DNA of 32,000 bases from Nitrososphaera viennensis EN76 (GCF_000698785.1 NZ_CP007536.1:270001-302000); one strand, 5' to 3'. Counted from the stretch's first letter, positions 4,032 through 16,968 are shown. Numbers and translations are program-made. Notes: a model not told the origin generated them from the letters alone.

Positions 4032-4083
4032 TGTTGTACTTACACAGATGGGTAACACTTTCAGTTACAGACATAGGTAACAC
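4032..4083. repeat. Left terminal inverted repeat of the IS
   Basis: The left end reads TGTTGTACTTACACAGATGGGTAACACTTTCAGTTACAGACATAGGTAACAC. The reverse complement of 5008-5059 reads TGTTGTACTTACACACATAGGTAACAGATTCGATTACCGACATGGGTAACAC. The first 15 nt are identical, and GGTAACA(C/G) motifs recur within the repeat. Confidence 0.85.
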
Positions 4084-4994
4084 TTTTTCAGCCGATTCTT
4101 GTTCCTTGTAGGCGTATTTAACAACTGCAGCCACCTTTCCTGCGGAGTCAGTCCTCCTATGCCGCCGTGTTCCCTGTCCATGTTATACGCATTGACAAAC
4201 ATGGTGTACCTTACCTTCCCGTCTTCTATGTCAAGGATTTCCTCCATTGCCAGGAACTCGTTCTTTACAATCTTGTTATAGGCCTCAACCTTGCCCTGCA
4301 GCTGAGGATACGCAGCTGGTATGGGCTTGTCACTGATGTCATTTTCTTTCAGGTACTGCCTGAACGATGTGGATACAAACTGCTTCCCGTTGTCATGCAT
4401 CACTTTCTTTGGCTTGCCGTTGGTACGTATCCAATCCTGCAGCACGTCAAGAACATCCTTGCTCCTCTTTCTTTCCGTCCATTTACTTACCACCTTCCGG
4501 GTACAATCGTCTATGCAGCTTACGATGTAGTTTTTCGTGTTTGAGTTACGAAGGTAGAACGGTCCCAAGATGTCCATCTGGACCATGTCGTTTGGGTGTT
4601 TCTTCTCAAAGCGCCTGTACTTTCTTATCTTCAGCTTGCAGCTCAGCCTGTTCAGGCCATGCCTTTTCAGTACCTTGTAGACTGTCCTGCTGCTGAGGGA
4701 TACTCCAAGCCTCTTTAGCCTGAATTTTATTCTGGCAGTACCAAACCTGCTGTCCAGGCGTAGGCCGAGGATGATCTGTTCCAGCTCAGGGGTTACCTTC
4801 TCTCCTGTAATACTATGTGGCCTTCTGGACAAGTCCTTCAGTCCGTCGATGCCGCGTGCAAGGTACCTTTTCTTCCACTTGTAGTATGTCTTCCTTGATA
4901 CGCCGTACTTTCTGCAGATGTTGGTGACGCTCTCTCCAGTACGTTCGTGTTCGTGAATCAGGTTGAATCTTGTCCCTTCTATCTCTGATGACAC
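4065..4994 (-). CDS. IS481-family DDE transposase (N-terminal HTH plus rve integrase core)
   Basis: The N-terminal HTH reads ICRKYGVSRKTYYKWKKRY. Candidate catalytic residues are D in VQMDILGP, D in VMHDNGKQF and E in QGKVEAYNK, with typical rve spacing. The 309-aa ORF is uninterrupted. Confidence 0.85.
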   Translation of the reverse strand: MSSEIEGTRFNLIHEHERTGESVTNICRKYGVSRKTYYKWKKRYLARGIDGLKDLSRRPHSITGEKVTPELEQIILGLRLDSRFGTARIKFRLKRLGVSLSSRTVYKVLKRHGLNRLSCKLKIRKYRRFEKKHPNDMVQMDILGPFYLRNSNTKNYIVSCIDDCTRKVVSKWTERKRSKDVLDVLQDWIRTNGKPKKVMHDNGKQFVSTSFRQYLKENDISDKPIPAAYPQLQGKVEAYNKIVKNEFLAMEEILDIEDGKVRYTMFVNAYNMDREHGGIGGLTPQERWLQLLNTPTRNKNRLKKCYLCL

Positions 4995-11537: not shown

Positions 11538-12641
11538 CTAGCGTTCCCGCTTGCCCTCGACAAACTCGAGGAAATTGGCCTTTGCAACGGAATACGGCAT
11601 CTGGACTGGCGGGTGCTTGAAGCAGTAGGCCGAGATGCTGTCAAGCGGGCCGGATATGCCCCGGTCGATTGCTATCTTGGCGCATCTTGCCGCGTCTATC
11701 ATGACGCCTGCCGAGTTGTAGGCATCGACCACCTTCAGCTTAAGGTCAAGTTCCACGGGGATGCCTCCAAAGTACTGGCCCTTTATCGAGATGTAGCAAA
11801 TCTTGTCGTTTTCAAGGAAGCCTACAAAGTCGGACGGGCCGATACGCATCGGGACCTCGTACGGGGCCATAGCTGCCACCGCGGATGTCTTGCTTATCCT
11901 CTTGTCTTCGAGGCGCTCCTCGTCAAGCATGTTGTAAAAGTCCATGTCGCCTCCGATGTTCAGCTGGTAGGTCTCATTCACCTTGACGCCCCTGTCGACA
12001 AACAATTTTACCAACGTCTTGTGGACGACTGTCGCGCCGAGCTGGCTCATGACGTCGTCGCCGGCGCACGCAAGGCCGCGTCCTGCAAAGGCATCCTGCC
12101 ACTTGGGCGTAGACGCGATGAATACCGGTATAGCGTTTACAAATGCGCATCCTGCATCAAGACATGCCTCTGCGTAGTATTGCGTACCACGCCTGCTTCC
12201 CACCGGCAGGTAATTGAGCAGCATCTCTGCGCCCGTGTCCTTTAGCACCTGCGCCACGTTTGCAGCCGGGCCGTCTGCAACCTTGATCTTTTGCGCAAGG
12301 TGCCTGCCGATGCCGTCGTGGACCTCTCCCTTTTGCACCTTGACGTCTGTCTTGTCCATCTCTTTTATGATGCGGATAGTGTTGTTCGGCTTGGTAAATA
12401 TTGCCTCGGAAAGGTCCTTTCCAACCTTGTTTGCGTTGACGTCAAAGGCTGCGACAAACTCGATGTCTGACGGCTCCAGCCCTCCAAGGTTGTAGGCTGT
12501 CAAGCCTATCCAGTCGCTTTCCTGTTTTCTGGCGTCTGGGTTTTCGCGGTAGTACCGGGTGCCTTGGACTAGAGCAGAAGCGCAATTGCCGATCCCGGCA
12601 ATGGCGACCTTGACCTTTCTACGCATCTCGTCTATCTGCAT
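11538..12641 (-). CDS. ino1: myo-Inositol-1-phosphate synthase (inositol-3-phosphate synthase, bacterial/archaeal Ino1 type)
   Basis: The N-terminal Rossmann motif VKVAIAGIGNCASALVQGTRYY closely resembles the actinobacterial/archaeal Ino1 motif (VAIVGVGNCASSLVQG, from memory). Size is 367 aa. It starts at ATG. Confidence 0.85.
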   Translation of the reverse strand: MQIDEMRRKVKVAIAGIGNCASALVQGTRYYRENPDARKQESDWIGLTAYNLGGLEPSDIEFVAAFDVNANKVGKDLSEAIFTKPNNTIRIIKEMDKTDVKVQKGEVHDGIGRHLAQKIKVADGPAANVAQVLKDTGAEMLLNYLPVGSRRGTQYYAEACLDAGCAFVNAIPVFIASTPKWQDAFAGRGLACAGDDVMSQLGATVVHKTLVKLFVDRGVKVNETYQLNIGGDMDFYNMLDEERLEDKRISKTSAVAAMAPYEVPMRIGPSDFVGFLENDKICYISIKGQYFGGIPVELDLKLKVVDAYNSAGVMIDAARCAKIAIDRGISGPLDSISAYCFKHPPVQMPYSVAKANFLEFVEGKRER

Positions 12642-12662
12642 TAGAATCTGCTTAATATATCT

Positions 12663-13364
12663 TCAAGTTGTTCTCGGGACAGAGCAAATCGTCTTTGTAT
12701 AAGCTATTTCAAACCCTGCGCTTTTGTACAGGCCAAGCAGGTTTTCGCTTCCAAGCGTCTGTAGGAACAAAAGCGAGCCGCGCTTTTCCGCAAGCGCCTT
12801 GGCAAAATTCAGAATCGACCTGGCGACGCCCTTGTTCCTATACGCCGGGATCGTGCCAAGGCAGTAGGTGCCGGTCATGCTGTTGTCGCTTTTTGTGAAA
12901 AGCGCCGCACATCCTGCCGGCAGATTGTCTTCATTGTATGCCAGCAAGAGATCCAATCTTTTTGCACTGGCTGCCATGATGCGTGCAACTTCGTCCTTCC
13001 ATCTTGGAACTGAAAACGACCTGCAAAAGACATCGACCCACGTCGCGACTTCTTCCGATGACTTGCATACTACTATTCTGATCCTGCCGTCGTTATGCCC
13101 TGCCTTTTTCGTCGATCTCAATACGTACATGGTGTCTGCCACGCGCAGGCCCTGCGGCGGCGACTTGAAAAAATAAAGGTGGCAATCGATGCCTGCGTCC
13201 CAGAACACCTTTGCCACCTGCTCGTACGGGACATCGCAATTTTCGACTGTTGCCCTGCTGAAGAAATAGTCGCCTTCAAGCCTCGGGTTGACAAGCGCAG
13301 TGGCGCATCTGATCTCTATTTTCTTTGTCCATAGCGAGCAGAACGCCCACTCGTTTTCCTCCAT
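12663..13364 (-). CDS. GNAT-family N-acetyltransferase with an additional N-terminal domain of about 90 aa
   Basis: The acetyl-CoA binding motif A is IPAYRNKGVARSILNFA in the C-terminal half. Track ORF start 13445 would overlap the upstream ligase gene by 65 nt. The ATG at 13364 (MEENEWAF) removes that overlap and leaves a 16-nt gap. Confidence 0.7.
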   Translation of the reverse strand: MEENEWAFCSLWTKKIEIRCATALVNPRLEGDYFFSRATVENCDVPYEQVAKVFWDAGIDCHLYFFKSPPQGLRVADTMYVLRSTKKAGHNDGRIRIVVCKSSEEVATWVDVFCRSFSVPRWKDEVARIMAASAKRLDLLLAYNEDNLPAGCAALFTKSDNSMTGTYCLGTIPAYRNKGVARSILNFAKALAEKRGSLLFLQTLGSENLLGLYKSAGFEIAYTKTICSVPRTT

Positions 13365-13380
13365 CGCCCTGTCGTAATCA

Positions 13381-14508
13381 TCAGTACCTGAGGCCAAGTA
13401 TTCCTGCCATCTCTCTAGTACCTGCGCCTGCGCGCGCCGCTTCAAGCATCACCTTTATCGCGCCTTGCGTGTCAAAATCGTCGTCCAACTTTTGCATGAA
13501 TTTCTTCATGTACGCTACCTTGTCTTTTTTGTCGGCTGCGCCTGAAATCGCATTGTCAAGCTCTGCGCATTTGGCCAGCTCGTTTTCTGCAAAGTCGAGC
13601 CGCTTTCCGTAATGCGTGGAATAGAGGTAAAGTCGCAACGCGTTTGCGCTGTGGTTCTGCAATAGCTCTCTGATGGCGACCGTGTTGCCAAGCGACTTGC
13701 CCATCTTCTTTCCCTTGACGTACACGAGGCCGACGTGCGTCCACAACTTTACCGGCTCCTTTTCAGACGTGAGCGCGCTCAGCTGCGCAAGGTGCGACTC
13801 GTGGTGCGGGTATACGAGCTCGTCAGCGCCGCCGTGCATGTCGTACCTGCCACCAAAGTGGGCCATGGCAACCGACGTGTCCTGCATGTGCCACCAAGGT
13901 ATGCCGTTTCCAAGCACGCTGTCAGAAAAGCTGATCCCAAAATCCTCGCCTGTGCTCCAGAGCAGAACGTCAAACGGCGATCTCTTGCCAGGCGCAATGT
14001 CCAGCCTGCAGTCTGCAAGCTCTTTTTCAGTCATCTTTGACAGCCTGCCAAAGCCTGCGCTTTTGGCGTCAAGGTAGACGTTTCCGCTTGCGCTGTACGC
14101 CTTGCCCTCGTCAAGCAGGCGCCTTGCAAGCACCCGCGCCGTCTGCACGTGATCTGACACGCGCGCAAACGCAAAGCCGTCAATGCCAAGGACCGCCGTA
14201 TCGTGCAATAATTCGCCGATGTAGGACGTGGCAAGCTCTTCCGGCGCCGTGCCTTCTGCTTTTGCCCTTGCAAATATCTTGGGATCGATGTCGGTAATGT
14301 TCACGATGACCTTGACCTCTGTGCCCAGAAAGCGCAGGTAGCGCGTCACCATGTCGTAAAAGAGGAGCATCCTTGCGTGGCCCACGTGCGAATAATCGTA
14401 CACGGTAGGCCCGCAGAGAAATATCCTGGCGGCGTTTCCTGGAGCAAAGTCTTTCTTTTTTGCCGCCAGCGTGTCATGGATCTTCAAGTGCCGGATAGCG
14501 CCTGCCAA
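13381..14508 (-). CDS. CysRS/MshC-family class I ligase lacking the C-terminal anticodon-binding domain and carrying altered zinc-site residues (not a canonical cysteinyl-tRNA synthetase)
   Basis: It has HIGH as HVGH in LCGPTVYDYSHVGHAR and KMSKS as KMGKS. It is colinear with E. coli CysRS (from memory) up to the DDDF(N/D)T helical bundle. It ends about 30 aa later, at 375 aa versus about 460. WHIEC is replaced by WHMQD, and HHENE by HHESH. The start is TTG at 14508, or TTG at 14487. Confidence 0.8.
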   Translation of the reverse strand: MAGAIRHLKIHDTLAAKKKDFAPGNAARIFLCGPTVYDYSHVGHARMLLFYDMVTRYLRFLGTEVKVIVNITDIDPKIFARAKAEGTAPEELATSYIGELLHDTAVLGIDGFAFARVSDHVQTARVLARRLLDEGKAYSASGNVYLDAKSAGFGRLSKMTEKELADCRLDIAPGKRSPFDVLLWSTGEDFGISFSDSVLGNGIPWWHMQDTSVAMAHFGGRYDMHGGADELVYPHHESHLAQLSALTSEKEPVKLWTHVGLVYVKGKKMGKSLGNTVAIRELLQNHSANALRLYLYSTHYGKRLDFAENELAKCAELDNAISGAADKKDKVAYMKKFMQKLDDDFDTQGAIKVMLEAARAGAGTREMAGILGLRY

Positions 14509-14517
14509 TGGTTTTCG

Positions 14518-15651
14518 TCAGACGGCCTCGGCAAGTTCGGGGCGCTCTTGGCTTATTATCTTGCCAAGGCCGCGCATGTAGTTTCGCGCAAACGTCGACA
14601 CCGGCTGCGATGAATACCAGATGCAGCCGAGCACTTCGCAGTCGTGGCACGTCCTTGCAATGTCCCACTGCGGCGCGCTCCATATCTCGTCTACCGAGTG
14701 CTCAAGGAGGCTGTACGTGTTTTCCGGGCCGTTGAACTTCCAGCACGGGACCATCACGGTGCCATCGCCGTTTACAAATATGCTCTTCCACACTCCGCAC
14801 TCGTCGAAAATCCCGCGGCCGTGCTCCAGTATCTGCCGGAAATACTCTGGCGGGATCATCACCTGCGGGCCTCCTCCTTTTTCTTTTTGCTTGCCCATGT
14901 AGTCAAGTATGCTTTCGCACACCTTGTTCATTGTCTGCCTGTCGGGAAGAAGCGAATAGTCGACATCCGACCTGTCCTCTACAAACGTGAACGAGACTGC
15001 GCTTGCGCCAAGCTCTCTTGCCCTGTCAAAATATGTCTGGTCAATGAACTCTTGCGTGTTGTATTTCGTAATGACGCTGTTGAAGTAATGCGAGACCTTA
15101 TGCTCTGTCAAGAGGTGCAGGTTGTCCATCACCCTGCGGTACATGTGCGGGTTGACCCCGCGCACCTTGCAGTACGATTCCTCATAGGTCGAGTCGATGC
15201 TACATGTGACAAACTGGATGTGCTTTCTCAGCTCGTCAAGGTCGATTGTGTGCAAAAGCGAGCAGTTGGAGATGAGCGTTACCGGCATTTTCAGGCCGTG
15301 CAGGTATTTCACGAGCTCCATAAAGTCCGGCCTGCTCGTGGGCTCGCCTCCTTCCACTATGGCCCAGACGCAGTATTTCGACACCTTGTCAAACACTGCC
15401 TTCCATTGCTCGGTTGTCAGGTCCTTGCGCCTTGCAAGCGCCATCTGGCCTTCCTTGTCCGCGTCTCCAAAGGGGCACATGGGGCAGTAAAAGTTGCAGT
15501 AATGGGTCATGCTGAACACTGCGATCAGCGGGCGTCTCCTGCCGACGGCCCTGTTTGCGGACCACTTGCCGAGCAGCTTCAGCGTCCTTATGGTGTCTAC
15601 TCCTCCCATTACGATTTTTGTAAAATGTCCGGAGTATTTCTGCCTTGTCAT
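14518..15651 (-). CDS. Radical SAM enzyme with a C-terminal SPASM/twitch-like Cys-rich extension
   Basis: The CxxxCxxC motif is HYCNFYCPMC and a GGEP motif is present (VEGGEPTS). C-terminal cysteines are ECGVWKSIFVNGDGTVMVPC and CHDCEVLGC. The ATG is at 15651; the track start at 15660 is a TTG three codons upstream. The stop lies 9 nt from the start of the ligase gene. Confidence 0.8.
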   Translation of the reverse strand: MTRQKYSGHFTKIVMGGVDTIRTLKLLGKWSANRAVGRRRPLIAVFSMTHYCNFYCPMCPFGDADKEGQMALARRKDLTTEQWKAVFDKVSKYCVWAIVEGGEPTSRPDFMELVKYLHGLKMPVTLISNCSLLHTIDLDELRKHIQFVTCSIDSTYEESYCKVRGVNPHMYRRVMDNLHLLTEHKVSHYFNSVITKYNTQEFIDQTYFDRARELGASAVSFTFVEDRSDVDYSLLPDRQTMNKVCESILDYMGKQKEKGGGPQVMIPPEYFRQILEHGRGIFDECGVWKSIFVNGDGTVMVPCWKFNGPENTYSLLEHSVDEIWSAPQWDIARTCHDCEVLGCIWYSSQPVSTFARNYMRGLGKIISQERPELAEAV

Positions 15652-15695
15652 CGTGCGCAAAGGCTAACAGAGGGGGCGTGCGCTACGCATGTGGC

Positions 15696-16334
15696 ATGGA
15701 CGCCCTTGCCTTTGGCGCGGAGGTGGTTGCAGTTTCGGCCTCGGGAGTGCTTGCACCCGGCCCGCTGTTTGTCGCAAACGTGATGTACGGGACAAGGCAG
15801 GGCGCGCTTTCTGGAATCAAGGTCGCGCACGGACATGCGGTCGTCGAAAGCACAGTAATCGCTGTGATCGCGGCAGGGCTCTTTTCCGCTTCTGCTTTTA
15901 TCGCAGACTATGCTGATATTGTCACAATATTCGGCGGCGTGTCGATAATTGGCTTTGCCATTGTACAGATAATCAGCATAGTCGCGGCAAGAAAGAAAAG
16001 TGACCAGAAAAAAAAGATCGAGACAAGGAAGGGGCCGTTTGCCACCGGCGTCGCGTTCTCCGCCCTCAACCCGTTCTTTCTTGTCTGGTGGCTCACAGTC
16101 GGCCTGAAACTGATATCGGACTCGGCCGCCTTTGGATCCGTGACGGGTCCCGCGCTATTGTTTGGCATGCACGTATGGATGGACTATGCATGGCTTGCGG
16201 CCACTGCGTACCTTGCGTCAAAAGGGAGTTCGGTGCTAAAGTCGAAATACTACCGGGTCTTGATGCTTGGGCTGACCGGCCTTTTGCTGTACTATGGCGC
16301 GCAGTTTTTGACAAGCGGGATAATGATAAAGTAA
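15696..16334 (+). CDS. LysE/RhtB-family amino-acid (or small metabolite) exporter
   Basis: The N-terminal motif is SGVLAPGPLFVANVMYGTRQG, with six predicted hydrophobic helices and size about 213 aa. The ATG at 15696 avoids overlap with the divergent radical SAM gene. Confidence 0.7.
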   Translation: MDALAFGAEVVAVSASGVLAPGPLFVANVMYGTRQGALSGIKVAHGHAVVESTVIAVIAAGLFSASAFIADYADIVTIFGGVSIIGFAIVQIISIVAARKKSDQKKKIETRKGPFATGVAFSALNPFFLVWWLTVGLKLISDSAAFGSVTGPALLFGMHVWMDYAWLAATAYLASKGSSVLKSKYYRVLMLGLTGLLLYYGAQFLTSGIMIK

Positions 16335-16354: not shown

Positions 16355-16663
16355 TTACTTTGCGCGCGAGATAGGCACATCTATCGTAGACACGTTTCTC
16401 GTCTTGCCGTCCTCTGATGTCACCTGCTCGGAGCCGAGCTTTATCGGGCCGATCTTGTAGCCGATAGTGTCCATCCTCTTGACGATTATCTGTGCCACGT
16501 CCACAGCCCGGGTGATGCTCTTGCCCCTGGCCTTTATGATGACTGTCGGCTCGTTGGCCAGCTGCACCAGCGTGGCGGTAACATAGGTCATCAATGGTTT
16601 CTTGCCGATAAAAATCTCGTTAGATGCCTTTGGCGGTCTGGTTGTATTGGTGCTGGTAGACAA
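16355..16663 (-). CDS. albA: Alba DNA/RNA-binding chromatin protein
   Basis: NEIFIGKKPLMTYVTATLVQL...VIIKARGKSITRAVDVAQIIVKR is the typical Alba fold sequence. Length is 102 aa. The start is TTG, and the conserved core begins before the first internal Met. Confidence 0.85.
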   Translation of the reverse strand: MSTSTNTTRPPKASNEIFIGKKPLMTYVTATLVQLANEPTVIIKARGKSITRAVDVAQIIVKRMDTIGYKIGPIKLGSEQVTSEDGKTRNVSTIDVPISRAK

Positions 16664-16719: not shown

Positions 16720-16968
16720 TCAAACACCTGCGTGCTTTTTGAGTATGTTTTCAATGTCCTTTGGGTTTTTGGCGATCTCCCTTACCGCTTCCGGGTCCTC
16801 GACTTCGTAGCAGTGGAGAAGCCCTAGCTCATCCTTGTAAAATAGGTAGACCTTGTCTTCAAAGATACAGTGGTAGAGCCTCTCCTGCTCCATCCTATCT
16901 GTCTTGATCTTTATGCCATCCTCGTTAATGAGGACCGGATAATCATTATTGTCTGGCACGAGTGTCAA
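16720..16968 (-). CDS. Small acidic hypothetical protein (82 aa)
   Basis: This is an open frame with coding-like composition (MTLVPDNNDYPVLINEDGIKIK...) and no family I recognise. The start is TTG at 16968 or GTG at 16959. Confidence 0.4.
   Translation of the reverse strand: MTLVPDNNDYPVLINEDGIKIKTDRMEQERLYHCIFEDKVYLFYKDELGLLHCYEVEDPEAVREIAKNPKDIENILKKHAGV

Follow-up and report, generated by a model that had tools for sequence, protein, structure and literature searches.

This report concerns four genes that lie close together on one strand of the genome of the soil-dwelling, ammonia-oxidizing archaeon Nitrososphaera viennensis EN76, within a window (the whole stretch of DNA that was analyzed) of 32,000 nucleotides (nt; GCF_000698785.1 NZ_CP007536.1:270001-302000). 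They encode a radical S-adenosylmethionine (SAM) enzyme; a shortened paralog of cysteinyl-tRNA synthetase (CysRS), referred to below as ‘the ligase’; a GNAT-family acetyltransferase (‘the GNAT’); and an inositol-1-phosphate synthase (Ino1). A preliminary description of the array, made from the sequence alone, regarded the four as probably co-transcribed and saw in three of them the logic of actinobacterial mycothiol biosynthesis. On our best reading, three units that sit in a conserved housekeeping block have been compacted, in this lineage, into the array. The first unit would be an orphan SPASM/twitch radical SAM enzyme. The second would be the truncated archaeal-type CysRS paralog followed, 4-16 nt on, by the tandem GNAT, and is probably the only conserved functional pair. 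The third would be a housekeeping inositol-1-phosphate synthase with its own promoter. We propose, with a probability of about one half, that the ligase and the GNAT are an independently evolved analog of MshC and MshD, the ligase and acetyltransferase of mycothiol synthesis, and that they make an N-acetylcysteinyl conjugate on an amine scaffold other than tRNA. The mycothiol comparison survives, then, for two of the three genes; Ino1 is not supported as a member, its proximity being a matter of synteny and its promoter its own. The features of the array, in the order of transcription, are:

14518-15609, minus strand: orphan SPASM/twitch radical SAM enzyme, NVIE_003290 (PF04055); the reading frame may extend to a TTG at 15660.
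13381-14508, minus strand: truncated archaeal-type CysRS paralog, cysS-1, NVIE_003280, 375 amino acids (aa), putative cysteine:amine ligase (PF01406).
12663-13364, minus strand: tandem-GNAT acetyltransferase, NVIE_003270, 233 aa (PF13508 and PF00583).
12653-12660, minus strand: putative Ino1 promoter, TATA-like box ATATATTA, in the short spacer that follows the stop codon of the GNAT.
11538-12626, minus strand: Ino1, inositol-1-phosphate synthase, NVIE_003260 (PF01658); the mechanical reading frame reaches an ATG at 12641.

Calling of open reading frames (ORFs) on the window places the four minus-strand ORFs at 11538-15660, and the gaps of 9, 16 and 21 nt given in the preliminary description are confirmed by the stops and starts visible in the sequence. 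Two of the proteins probably begin further in than the mechanical calls. Ino1 most likely starts at a conserved Met at 12626, because its homologs are 362 aa long and, in several relatives, the ATG further upstream is either not in frame or cut off by a stop; this start widens the GNAT-Ino1 gap to 36 nt. For the radical SAM protein the ATG at 15609 is the likeliest start, its homologs being 357-363 aa long. In the part of the published gene table that was covered (PMC7785015), the genes are listed as NVIE_003260 (ino), NVIE_003270 (GNAT), NVIE_003280 (cysS-1) and NVIE_003290 (putative radical SAM), and are flanked by SMC on one side and by lysE and albA on the other.

The ligase is a CysRS-like protein that belongs, by score, to neither of the two families it most resembles. 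It matches PF01406 with an E-value of 1.1e-71 (Pfam), and falls below the cut-offs both of TIGR00435, canonical CysRS (cysS; 262 bits, cut-off 340), and of TIGR03447, MshC (203.4 bits, cut-off 485). In a PDB search it is nearer to CysRS (235 bits) than to MshC (140 bits). It aligns to residues 2-365 of the 461 of Escherichia coli CysRS (1li5) and is without the C-terminal anticodon-binding domain, as the preliminary description had recognized. Its HIGH motif reads HVGH and its KMSKS motif KMGKS; the motifs of the connective-polypeptide region of CysRS are kept; and in a 13-sequence alignment of the family HIGH, KMSKS, Cys32, Gly33, Thr72, Trp206, Asp210 and His235 are invariant. A CysRS-like catalytic domain, with HIGH and KMSKS and with no anticodon-binding domain, is also the plan of MshC. 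We take Cys32, Thr72, Trp206, Asp210 and His235 to be the cysteine pocket of E. coli CysRS, with Asp as in archaeal CysRS. The N. viennensis EN76 protein at NCBI that is 100% identical to the ligase bears the name ‘cysteine--tRNA ligase’, and like the cysS-1 annotation this tRNA-ligase label is misleading. A second gene annotated cysteine--tRNA ligase and named cysS-2 (NVIE_022420) is detected in the covered part of the N. viennensis proteome. The preliminary description had left room for the ligase being the sole CysRS of the genome; since cysS-2 is annotated, it is not. The entries covered of the proteome table, which is partial and apparently ordered by accession, do not include the ligase, the GNAT or the radical SAM protein.

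Two positions of the metal site differ from E. coli CysRS: Cys209 is replaced by Asp210, and Glu238 by His239. These had been described as a ‘rewired’ site peculiar to the ligase, a candidate we rejected because the same Asp is found in the full-length CysRS-type loci that we recovered (L045-L088). These loci come from Methanobacterium, Methanothrix, Bathyarchaeia, Caldarchaeum, Thermoplasmata, Aenigmarchaeota and some Saccharibacteria, and are archaeal save for a few bacterial metagenome-assembled genomes (MAGs). Asp occupies the E. coli Cys209 position in 39 of 39, the loci reading RPGWH[IV]EDTAI here and PHHE[A/C]E at the Glu238 site, and a Cys/Asp/His/Glu site appears to be normal for this large CysRS clade. 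The Glu238-equivalent, for its part, varies within the paralog family (H, L, V, I or D), and MshC has lost this Glu too (PHHEYS). In a neighbor-joining tree, all of the truncated paralogs form one clade beside the archaeal full-length ‘WHIED’ CysRS. Forms that conserve the motifs branch first, with the ammonia-oxidizer clade (WWHMQD) nested inside, and the basal truncated members that lie beside a GNAT retain the exact CysRS motifs WHIEDTAI and PHHEAEIAQ. To judge from these sequences, the ligase module probably arose independently from archaeal CysRS within the Nitrososphaerota, and was not acquired from actinobacterial mshC and mshD.

The GNAT has Pfam matches to PF13508 and PF00583. Its N-terminal domain is GNAT-like and matched no Pfam acetyltransferase model; its C-terminal half has an intact, invariant acetyl-coenzyme A (acetyl-CoA) motif, R176-x-x-G179-x-A181. 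An AlphaFold2 (AF2) model built with 42 homologs, with a mean predicted local distance difference test score (pLDDT) of 94.7, consists of two GNAT-like halves. Foldseek matches the model in the PDB to VipF, 3frm, 4ius, MshD (2c27; rank 11, template-modeling (TM) score 0.68, E 5e-9) and 1ozp; also to the clavulanate tandem GNAT and to a glucosamine N-acetyltransferase; and, further down, to the aminoacyl-tRNA-dependent peptide synthases Sba18 (rank 37) and Sbb17 (rank 44). In sequence, its top PDB matches are the N-alpha-acetyltransferases Naa50 (3e-7), Naa30 and RimI. Model and motif together suggest the arrangement that defines the MshD class, tandem GNAT domains with the acetyl-CoA site in the C-terminal one; membership of the MshD sequence family was not borne out.

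The chemistry, the specificity for cysteine, the amine acceptor and the order of the steps would be as follows. The ligase would bind L-cysteine in a zinc-thiolate pocket (Cys32, Asp210 and His235, with Thr72 and Trp206), and would activate it with ATP to cysteinyl-AMP (Cys-AMP) through its HIGH and KMSKS motifs. Having no means of recognizing a tRNA anticodon, it would hand the cysteinyl group on to an acceptor other than tRNA, at an amine. In the next step the GNAT would use acetyl-CoA to acetylate the alpha-amine that is left free on the cysteinyl group. The predicted product is an N-acetylcysteinyl-amide conjugate, a mycothiol-type chemistry. The truncated paralog, its pairing with a GNAT, the tandem-GNAT fold and the presence of cysS-2 make an MshC/MshD-like logic reasonable for the two genes. 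Inositol might form part of the product scaffold.

Gene neighborhoods support the pair and dissolve the quartet. Members of the ligase family were gathered from GTDB, with each species represented by one genome, and from metagenome contigs, and the neighboring genes were scored by BLASTP or hidden Markov model; the counts that follow are of non-redundant loci with a truncated ligase, individual loci being cited by their L numbers. A GNAT gene lies directly 3' of the ligase gene in 37 of the 46 loci whose flanks are long enough to tell; in another two it is no more than 1.1 kb away. The junction is tight everywhere (called gaps of 4-16 nt), and such pairs span Nitrososphaera, Nitrosotalea, Nitrosopumilales and deep-branching groundwater Nitrososphaerota. 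The radical SAM gene lies within 1.5 kb upstream of the ligase in 9/41 loci, all from the Nitrososphaera genus clade, and Ino1 lies within 4 kb downstream of ligase-GNAT in 21/37. Wherever Ino1 is nearby it is always followed by SMC, and from Nitrososphaera to Nitrosotalea synteny extends over a larger block, which comprises helicase, IMS polymerase, Alba, ligase-GNAT, Ino1 and SMC. Nitrosotalea has a deoxyhypusine synthase gene, encoded on the other strand, between GNAT and Ino1; in L034 and L035 ligase-GNAT-SMC is kept without Ino1; and the deep-branching pairs (L047, L048, L050, L051, L058 and L084) have no Ino1 nearby. These exceptions argue that the proximity of Ino1 is inherited synteny of unrelated housekeeping genes, and closeness to Ino1 is no more informative than closeness to SMC or Alba. 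Conservation of gene order across the Nitrososphaeria, on which the preliminary description had staked the four-gene block, is therefore found for the ligase-GNAT pair and not for the radical SAM gene or Ino1 as specific members.

The deep loci also hold other genes next to the pair. At L047:3774-4904(+), in a deep-branching MAG labeled Nitrosopumilales, a different radical SAM gene (376 aa, PF04055) begins 25 nt after the GNAT on the same strand. The same position after the GNAT is occupied by an NAD-dependent epimerase in L084 and by a PMT_2-like membrane protein in L058. A third enzyme beside the pair is not consistent among these loci.

Ino1 itself matches PF01658 (E 3.5e-30; 104.8 bits, cut-off 27) and scores below the cut-off of TIGR03450 (397 bits against 638), which makes it a myo-inositol-1-phosphate synthase and not the actinobacterial, mycothiol-type equivalog. 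Its conserved N-terminus reads M-R/G-R-K-V-K-V, and it is abundant in the covered part of the N. viennensis proteome. As far as the covered part of the transcriptome dataset goes (PMC7785015 Dataset S1), a further gene outside the window, NVIE_008100, implies that the Ino1 function is duplicated in this genome.

Transcript levels, too, divide the array. In the covered part of the same published RNA-seq dataset, values are given as log2 reads per kilobase per million (RPKM) for replete and limited conditions, respectively, and are 7.81 and 7.25 for the radical SAM gene, 5.38 and 4.73 for the ligase, 4.47 and 3.40 for the GNAT, and 9.45 and 8.84 for Ino1. The Ino1 transcript is thus ~30-fold more abundant than that of the GNAT, the gene directly upstream, and the radical SAM transcript ~5-fold more abundant than that of the ligase. 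The center of the box ATATATTA (12660-12653) is ~30 nt upstream of the Ino1 ATG at 12626. A box of this kind, AGATATATTAAGCAG (or AGATTTATTACTCTG in four loci), occurs in 10 of 11 loci examined from the Nitrososphaerales. Its spacing from the start is much alike in these loci, be the gene upstream the GNAT, a small ORF or another. The TATA-like box in the spacer after the GNAT stop explains the high Ino1 transcript, and its conservation ~30 nt from the start, independent of the gene upstream, indicates that Ino1 has its own promoter; the mRNA is probably nearly leaderless. In other Nitrososphaera genomes the radical SAM and ligase genes are spaced 130-1000 nt apart, with a CTTATAAC box upstream of the ligase; the 9-nt junction seen in N. 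viennensis and the genomes nearest to it is a derived, compacted state. Comparable transcripts and freedom from internal promoters, the marks of a single operon, are absent, and the array resolves into three separate units. Unequal RNA-seq levels and the conserved Ino1 promoter element speak against co-transcription of the four genes; block synteny, and the absence of Ino1 beside deep-branching ligase-GNAT pairs, speak against Ino1 as a member of the pathway. Ino1 is a housekeeping gene with a promoter of its own.

The radical SAM protein has a significant match to PF04055 and a weak one to PF13186 (SPASM). The cysteines of its CX3CX2C motif (C38, C42 and C45) are invariant, as are C271, C289, C321, C324 and C329, and with this motif and a C-terminal Cys-rich domain it qualifies as a SPASM/twitch enzyme. 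Its best curated family in NCBIfam, TIGR03961 (the PTO1314 family), scores 82 bits against a cut-off of 306, which is not membership. The protein is 73-94% identical across ammonia oxidizers, and is much better conserved than the ligase or the GNAT. Among 1.84 billion cluster representatives only 16, most of them fragments, reach E<=1e-30, and beyond three distant full-length relatives (37-51% identity) scores drop to the generic radical SAM level; on these searches the family would be essentially specific to the Nitrososphaeria. The AF2 model is of moderate quality (pLDDT 74) and most resembles the structures of SuiB, SkfB, BlsE, anSME, viperin-like enzymes and PqqE; the best 50 structure matches do not include BtrN. 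A PDB sequence search returned only PqqE and the tetraether synthase GDGT-MAS, both weak. We considered a BtrN-type inositol or inosamine enzyme and rejected it, there being no fold or family signal. In Nitrosotalea the radical SAM gene lies elsewhere on the ligase contig, beside PBP-family and methyltransferase genes, and in L092 a distance of 5 kb separates it from a ligase that stands alone. Its tie to inositol or to the ligase is local adjacency in one genus, nothing further, and the functional coupling suggested earlier is not supported. A 379-aa mechanical ORF at 14644-15783(+) runs antisense to nearly the whole radical SAM gene; given how strongly the protein on the sense strand is conserved, we take this frame to be an artifact of composition rather than a gene.

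Outside the genus Nitrososphaera, the ligase has a further neighbor. A small protein of ~80-105 aa, which we call S, is encoded directly upstream of the ligase and transcribed divergently from it in 25/41 loci, with intergenic spacers of ~40-80 nt. It carries the motif LDxDEGIRI...F[IV]N[KR]..., and its C-terminal Tyr is invariant. S is likewise found ahead of a solitary ligase (L092) and of a GNAT homolog with no ligase beside it (L094 and L095). It is missing from the N. viennensis window and from beside the ligase in Nitrososphaera-genus loci, where the radical SAM gene takes its position upstream of the ligase. No homologs of S were found in Pfam, in NCBIfam or in a PDB profile search. Examples of S are:

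L051:7556-7864(-), minus strand
L058:5027-5329(-), minus strand
L084:1384-1689(-), minus strand
L047:1394-1705(-), minus strand
L031:6717-6965(-), minus strand
L092:15161-15430(+), plus strand, before the lone ligase
L094:5434-5703(-), minus strand, before the lone GNAT homolog

An 82-aa ORF in the window, at 16720-16968(-), has no Pfam match and adjoins the Alba gene (16355-16663), beside which it is kept in 28 related loci from ammonia-oxidizer lineages. It was tried as a diverged S and rejected (hhalign probability 0.5%). A module of S, truncated CysRS and tandem GNAT, carried by the Nitrososphaerota and evolved independently of the mycothiol genes, might make a new N-acetylcysteinyl thiol or carry out an S-dependent cysteinylation; we offer this extension tentatively, as a possibility somewhat short of an even chance.

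Several observations weigh against an MshC/MshD-type role for the ligase and the GNAT. One of them is S, the main observation outside the analogy, for which the model does not account. The pairing has exceptions: in one Nitrososphaeraceae subclade, seven loci have a ligase without an adjacent GNAT. Ligase-without-GNAT loci (L003, L018, L019, L021-L024 and L092) include MAGs labeled Nitrosopolaris; their ligases end in FGL[VND]Y, and S is retained. In L094 and L095, conversely, S and a GNAT homolog are present with no ligase beside them. Evidently the ligase-GNAT-S module can be split. Tandem-GNAT folds are not exclusive to MshD, being found also in VipF and in aminoacyl-tRNA-dependent transferases, and no sequence match of the GNAT to MshD was obtained, either among NCBIfam models at E<=0.01 or in a PDB profile search to E=1. 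The specificity of the ligase for cysteine is suggested by its residues, and the change from WHIED to WHMQD in ammonia oxidizers, together with loss of the Glu238-equivalent, tells against it. The ligase tree is a simple neighbor-joining tree, with no support values. At ~20-40 RPKM in the covered transcriptome data, ligase and GNAT transcripts are low, and one would not expect this if the pair made a major redox buffer. No partner in the form of an acceptor, a glycosyltransferase or a deacetylase was identified at the window, and the covered part of the N. viennensis gene table names no MshA- or MshB-like gene. A search of the 32-kb window returned no GT4 glycosyltransferase, LmbE-type deacetylase or tRNA gene, which upholds the earlier statement that MshA-type GT4 and MshB/LmbE enzymes are lacking here.

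Four other explanations deserve to be weighed against the MshC/MshD-type pair. The original idea was a pathway encoded by a four-gene operon. Inositol phosphate would come from Ino1, and the radical SAM enzyme would act on an intermediate, whether derived from inositol or not; the ligase would attach cysteine, or some other amino acid, and acetylation by the GNAT would yield an inositol-linked thiol. The mycothiol pathway does use Ino1, MshC and MshD (PMC7278568); only very short gaps separate the genes in N. viennensis; its closest relatives (L009, L010 and L096) show the same compact arrangement of four genes; and the 21/37 loci with Ino1 downstream of the pair include Nitrosotalea. But expression of neighboring genes differs up to ~30-fold and the Ino1 promoter is conserved; the deoxyhypusine synthase gene intervenes in Nitrosotalea; L034/L035 and deep-branching pairs such as L051, L058 and L084 do without Ino1; and the block with IMS polymerase, Alba and SMC is syntenic as a whole, which renders Ino1 proximity unspecific. 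The radical SAM gene, moreover, is adjacent in only 9/41 loci, and its fold matches peptide and protein maturases first, with BtrN not among the best 50; MshA- and MshB-type genes were not found in the window. We consider this pathway improbable. Another alternative is a role for S itself: the module might act on or through S, as a carrier or adaptor (cf. LysW), or as a substrate with a C-terminal Tyr, processed in part by the radical SAM enzyme as MftC processes MftA. The position of S before the ligase in 25/41 loci, and before the lone ligase (L092) and lone GNAT (L094), fits such a role, as do the invariant C-terminal Tyr, the nearest families of the radical SAM protein (TIGR03961, PqqE and the mycofactocin maturase), its nearest folds, which are peptide maturases, and its occupation of the position of S in the genus Nitrososphaera. 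The ligase and GNAT persist without S, however, in Nitrososphaera-genus loci and in the N. viennensis window; among the invariant residues of S there is no Lys, Cys, Ser or Thr to which a cysteinyl group could be attached; it has no detected homolog in Pfam, NCBIfam or the PDB; and the radical SAM gene and S are adjacent nowhere, the MftA/MftC link being one of analogy only. A role of this kind would surprise us.

The remaining two explanations concern the ligase as a synthetase. It might act on RNA, either charging a tRNA, special or ordinary, with cysteine and with no need of the anticodon, like the bacterial CysRS* (with SelC* and SelB*), or aminoacylating a modified nucleoside, like the truncated GluRS paralog YadB (GluQRS), with the GNAT acetylating the aminoacyl group or serving as a Fem-like, aminoacyl-tRNA-dependent transferase. 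CysRS* and YadB are truncated synthetase paralogs that do act on tRNA (PMC9437257); Thaumarchaeota encode a SelB-like factor that has been proposed to bind Cys-tRNA (PMC3037878); the ligase keeps the connective-polypeptide motifs of CysRS; and the fold matches of the GNAT extend to Sba18 and Sbb17 (ranks 37 and 44). Against this, a tRNA gene is absent from the window and from 31/35 related loci, a tRNA-Cys-like gene adjoins none of the loci, and a search for a linked structured RNA or tRNA found none. The acetyl-CoA motif of the GNAT is invariant, and its Pfam matches are to acetyltransferases, not to FemAB, L/F-transferase or DUF2156. The SelB-like factor is unlinked to the locus; its reported range takes in archaeal groups, Sulfolobales and methanogens among them, that yielded no truncated paralog in our scan. 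On balance, action on RNA is unlikely. Last, the ligase could be a decaying or redundant duplicate of CysRS, and its neighbors coincidental. It is annotated simply as cysS-1, its expression in the covered data is low, and it evolves faster than its neighbors (Nitrososphaera-Nitrosotalea identity of 41%, where the radical SAM protein has 74% and Ino1 67%). Decay, however, is hard to reconcile with intact ORFs and invariant catalytic motifs in dozens of species-level genomes, with 120/120 metagenomic homologs intact among the matches listed (at least 47% identity over at least 83% of the protein), or with a consistent truncation and a GNAT pairing kept from the basal Nitrososphaerota onward. We regard it as very improbable indeed.

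The window holds one further feature, away from the array: an IS481-like transposase gene (rve integrase core and helix-turn-helix domains) at 4065-4994(-), between Nre-like and prolyl-tRNA synthetase genes.

Ammonia-oxidizing archaea are among the most abundant microbes of soil and ocean, and their redox buffering is poorly understood. The ligase-GNAT pair is a concrete, testable candidate for a source of a cysteine-derived metabolite in these very abundant organisms. In reviews, the CysRS paralogs are MshC and CysRS* only (PMC9437257). A 2020 review credits archaea with no mycothiol (MSH) genes save a single MshD hit, MSH itself not having been detected (PMC7278568), and comparative genomics of ammonia oxidizers reports ergothioneine and, in the Nitrososphaerales, gamma-glutamylcysteine/gshA only (PMC7554672). 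The statement, in the preliminary description, that mycothiol-type genes had been suggested in these archaea found no counterpart in the open-access literature searched, and no description of the truncated CysRS paralog was found in open-access papers or bioRxiv preprints. If our proposal is true, the ligase is only the third functional class of CysRS paralog, after MshC and CysRS*. On the more tentative extension that includes S, its product would be a previously unknown archaeal low-molecular-weight thiol, or its reaction a new, S-dependent cysteinylation; MshC/MshD-type chemistry would, either way, be an invention that archaea made independently, out of a CysRS of their own. This reinvention, together with an extra small-protein partner, is what we propose as new. 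Three corrections accompany it: to the cysS-1 label, to the reading of an operon from gene packing and to the treatment of the metal-site Asp as special. The four-gene operon, the coupling of the radical SAM enzyme, the rewired metal site and the inositol link are not supported.

How does the pair compare with known systems? CysRS* (of Desulfobacterales) and YadB/GluQRS are, like the ligase, truncated class I synthetases without an anticodon-binding domain. They differ from it in that the ligase has no linked tRNA or SelB-type gene and has an acetyl-CoA-type GNAT for a partner. A close parallel is with MshC, the actinobacterial L-cysteine:glucosaminyl-inositol (GlcN-Ins) ligase. MshC, too, is a CysRS paralog without an anticodon-binding domain, with HIGH, KMSKS, Cys and His metal ligands, and an N-acetyltransferase partner; it, too, has lost the equivalent of E. 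coli Glu238 (PHHEYS in MshC; PHHES[H/L/V/I] in the paralog of ammonia-oxidizing archaea). The ligase is not its ortholog, however, being nearer to CysRS and derived independently from the archaeal ‘WHIED’ CysRS. Nor does it share the zinc ligands of MshC, which are Cys, Cys and His (C43, C231 and H256 in Mycobacterium smegmatis); it has Asp210 in place of Cys231 (WWHMQD versus WHVEC). MshA and MshB partners were not found beside it. To our knowledge, actinobacterial mshC and mshD are generally not adjacent, whereas the archaeal ligase and GNAT genes are almost fused. With MshD, the GNAT shares a predicted architecture of two GNAT domains, of which the C-terminal one bears the acetyl-CoA motif (2c27; TM 0.68, E 5e-9). 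No relationship was detected at the level of sequence, and the GNAT is shorter (233 aa versus ~300-315 aa). What it and MshD have in common would be a fold class rather than a family, since VipF, 3frm and 4ius match equally well or better. Canonical archaeal CysRS (Methanobacterium, Methanothrix and Bathyarchaeia; cysS-2) has the same catalytic core as the ligase, the same Asp at the Cys209 position, and 35-41% identity to it. The ligase is shorter by ~60-90 C-terminal residues, corresponding to the anticodon-binding domain; in the clade of ammonia-oxidizing archaea, WHIEDTAI has become WWHMQD[ST]S and PHHEAE has become PHHE[SA]H; and where the canonical enzyme stands alone, the ligase is paired with a GNAT.

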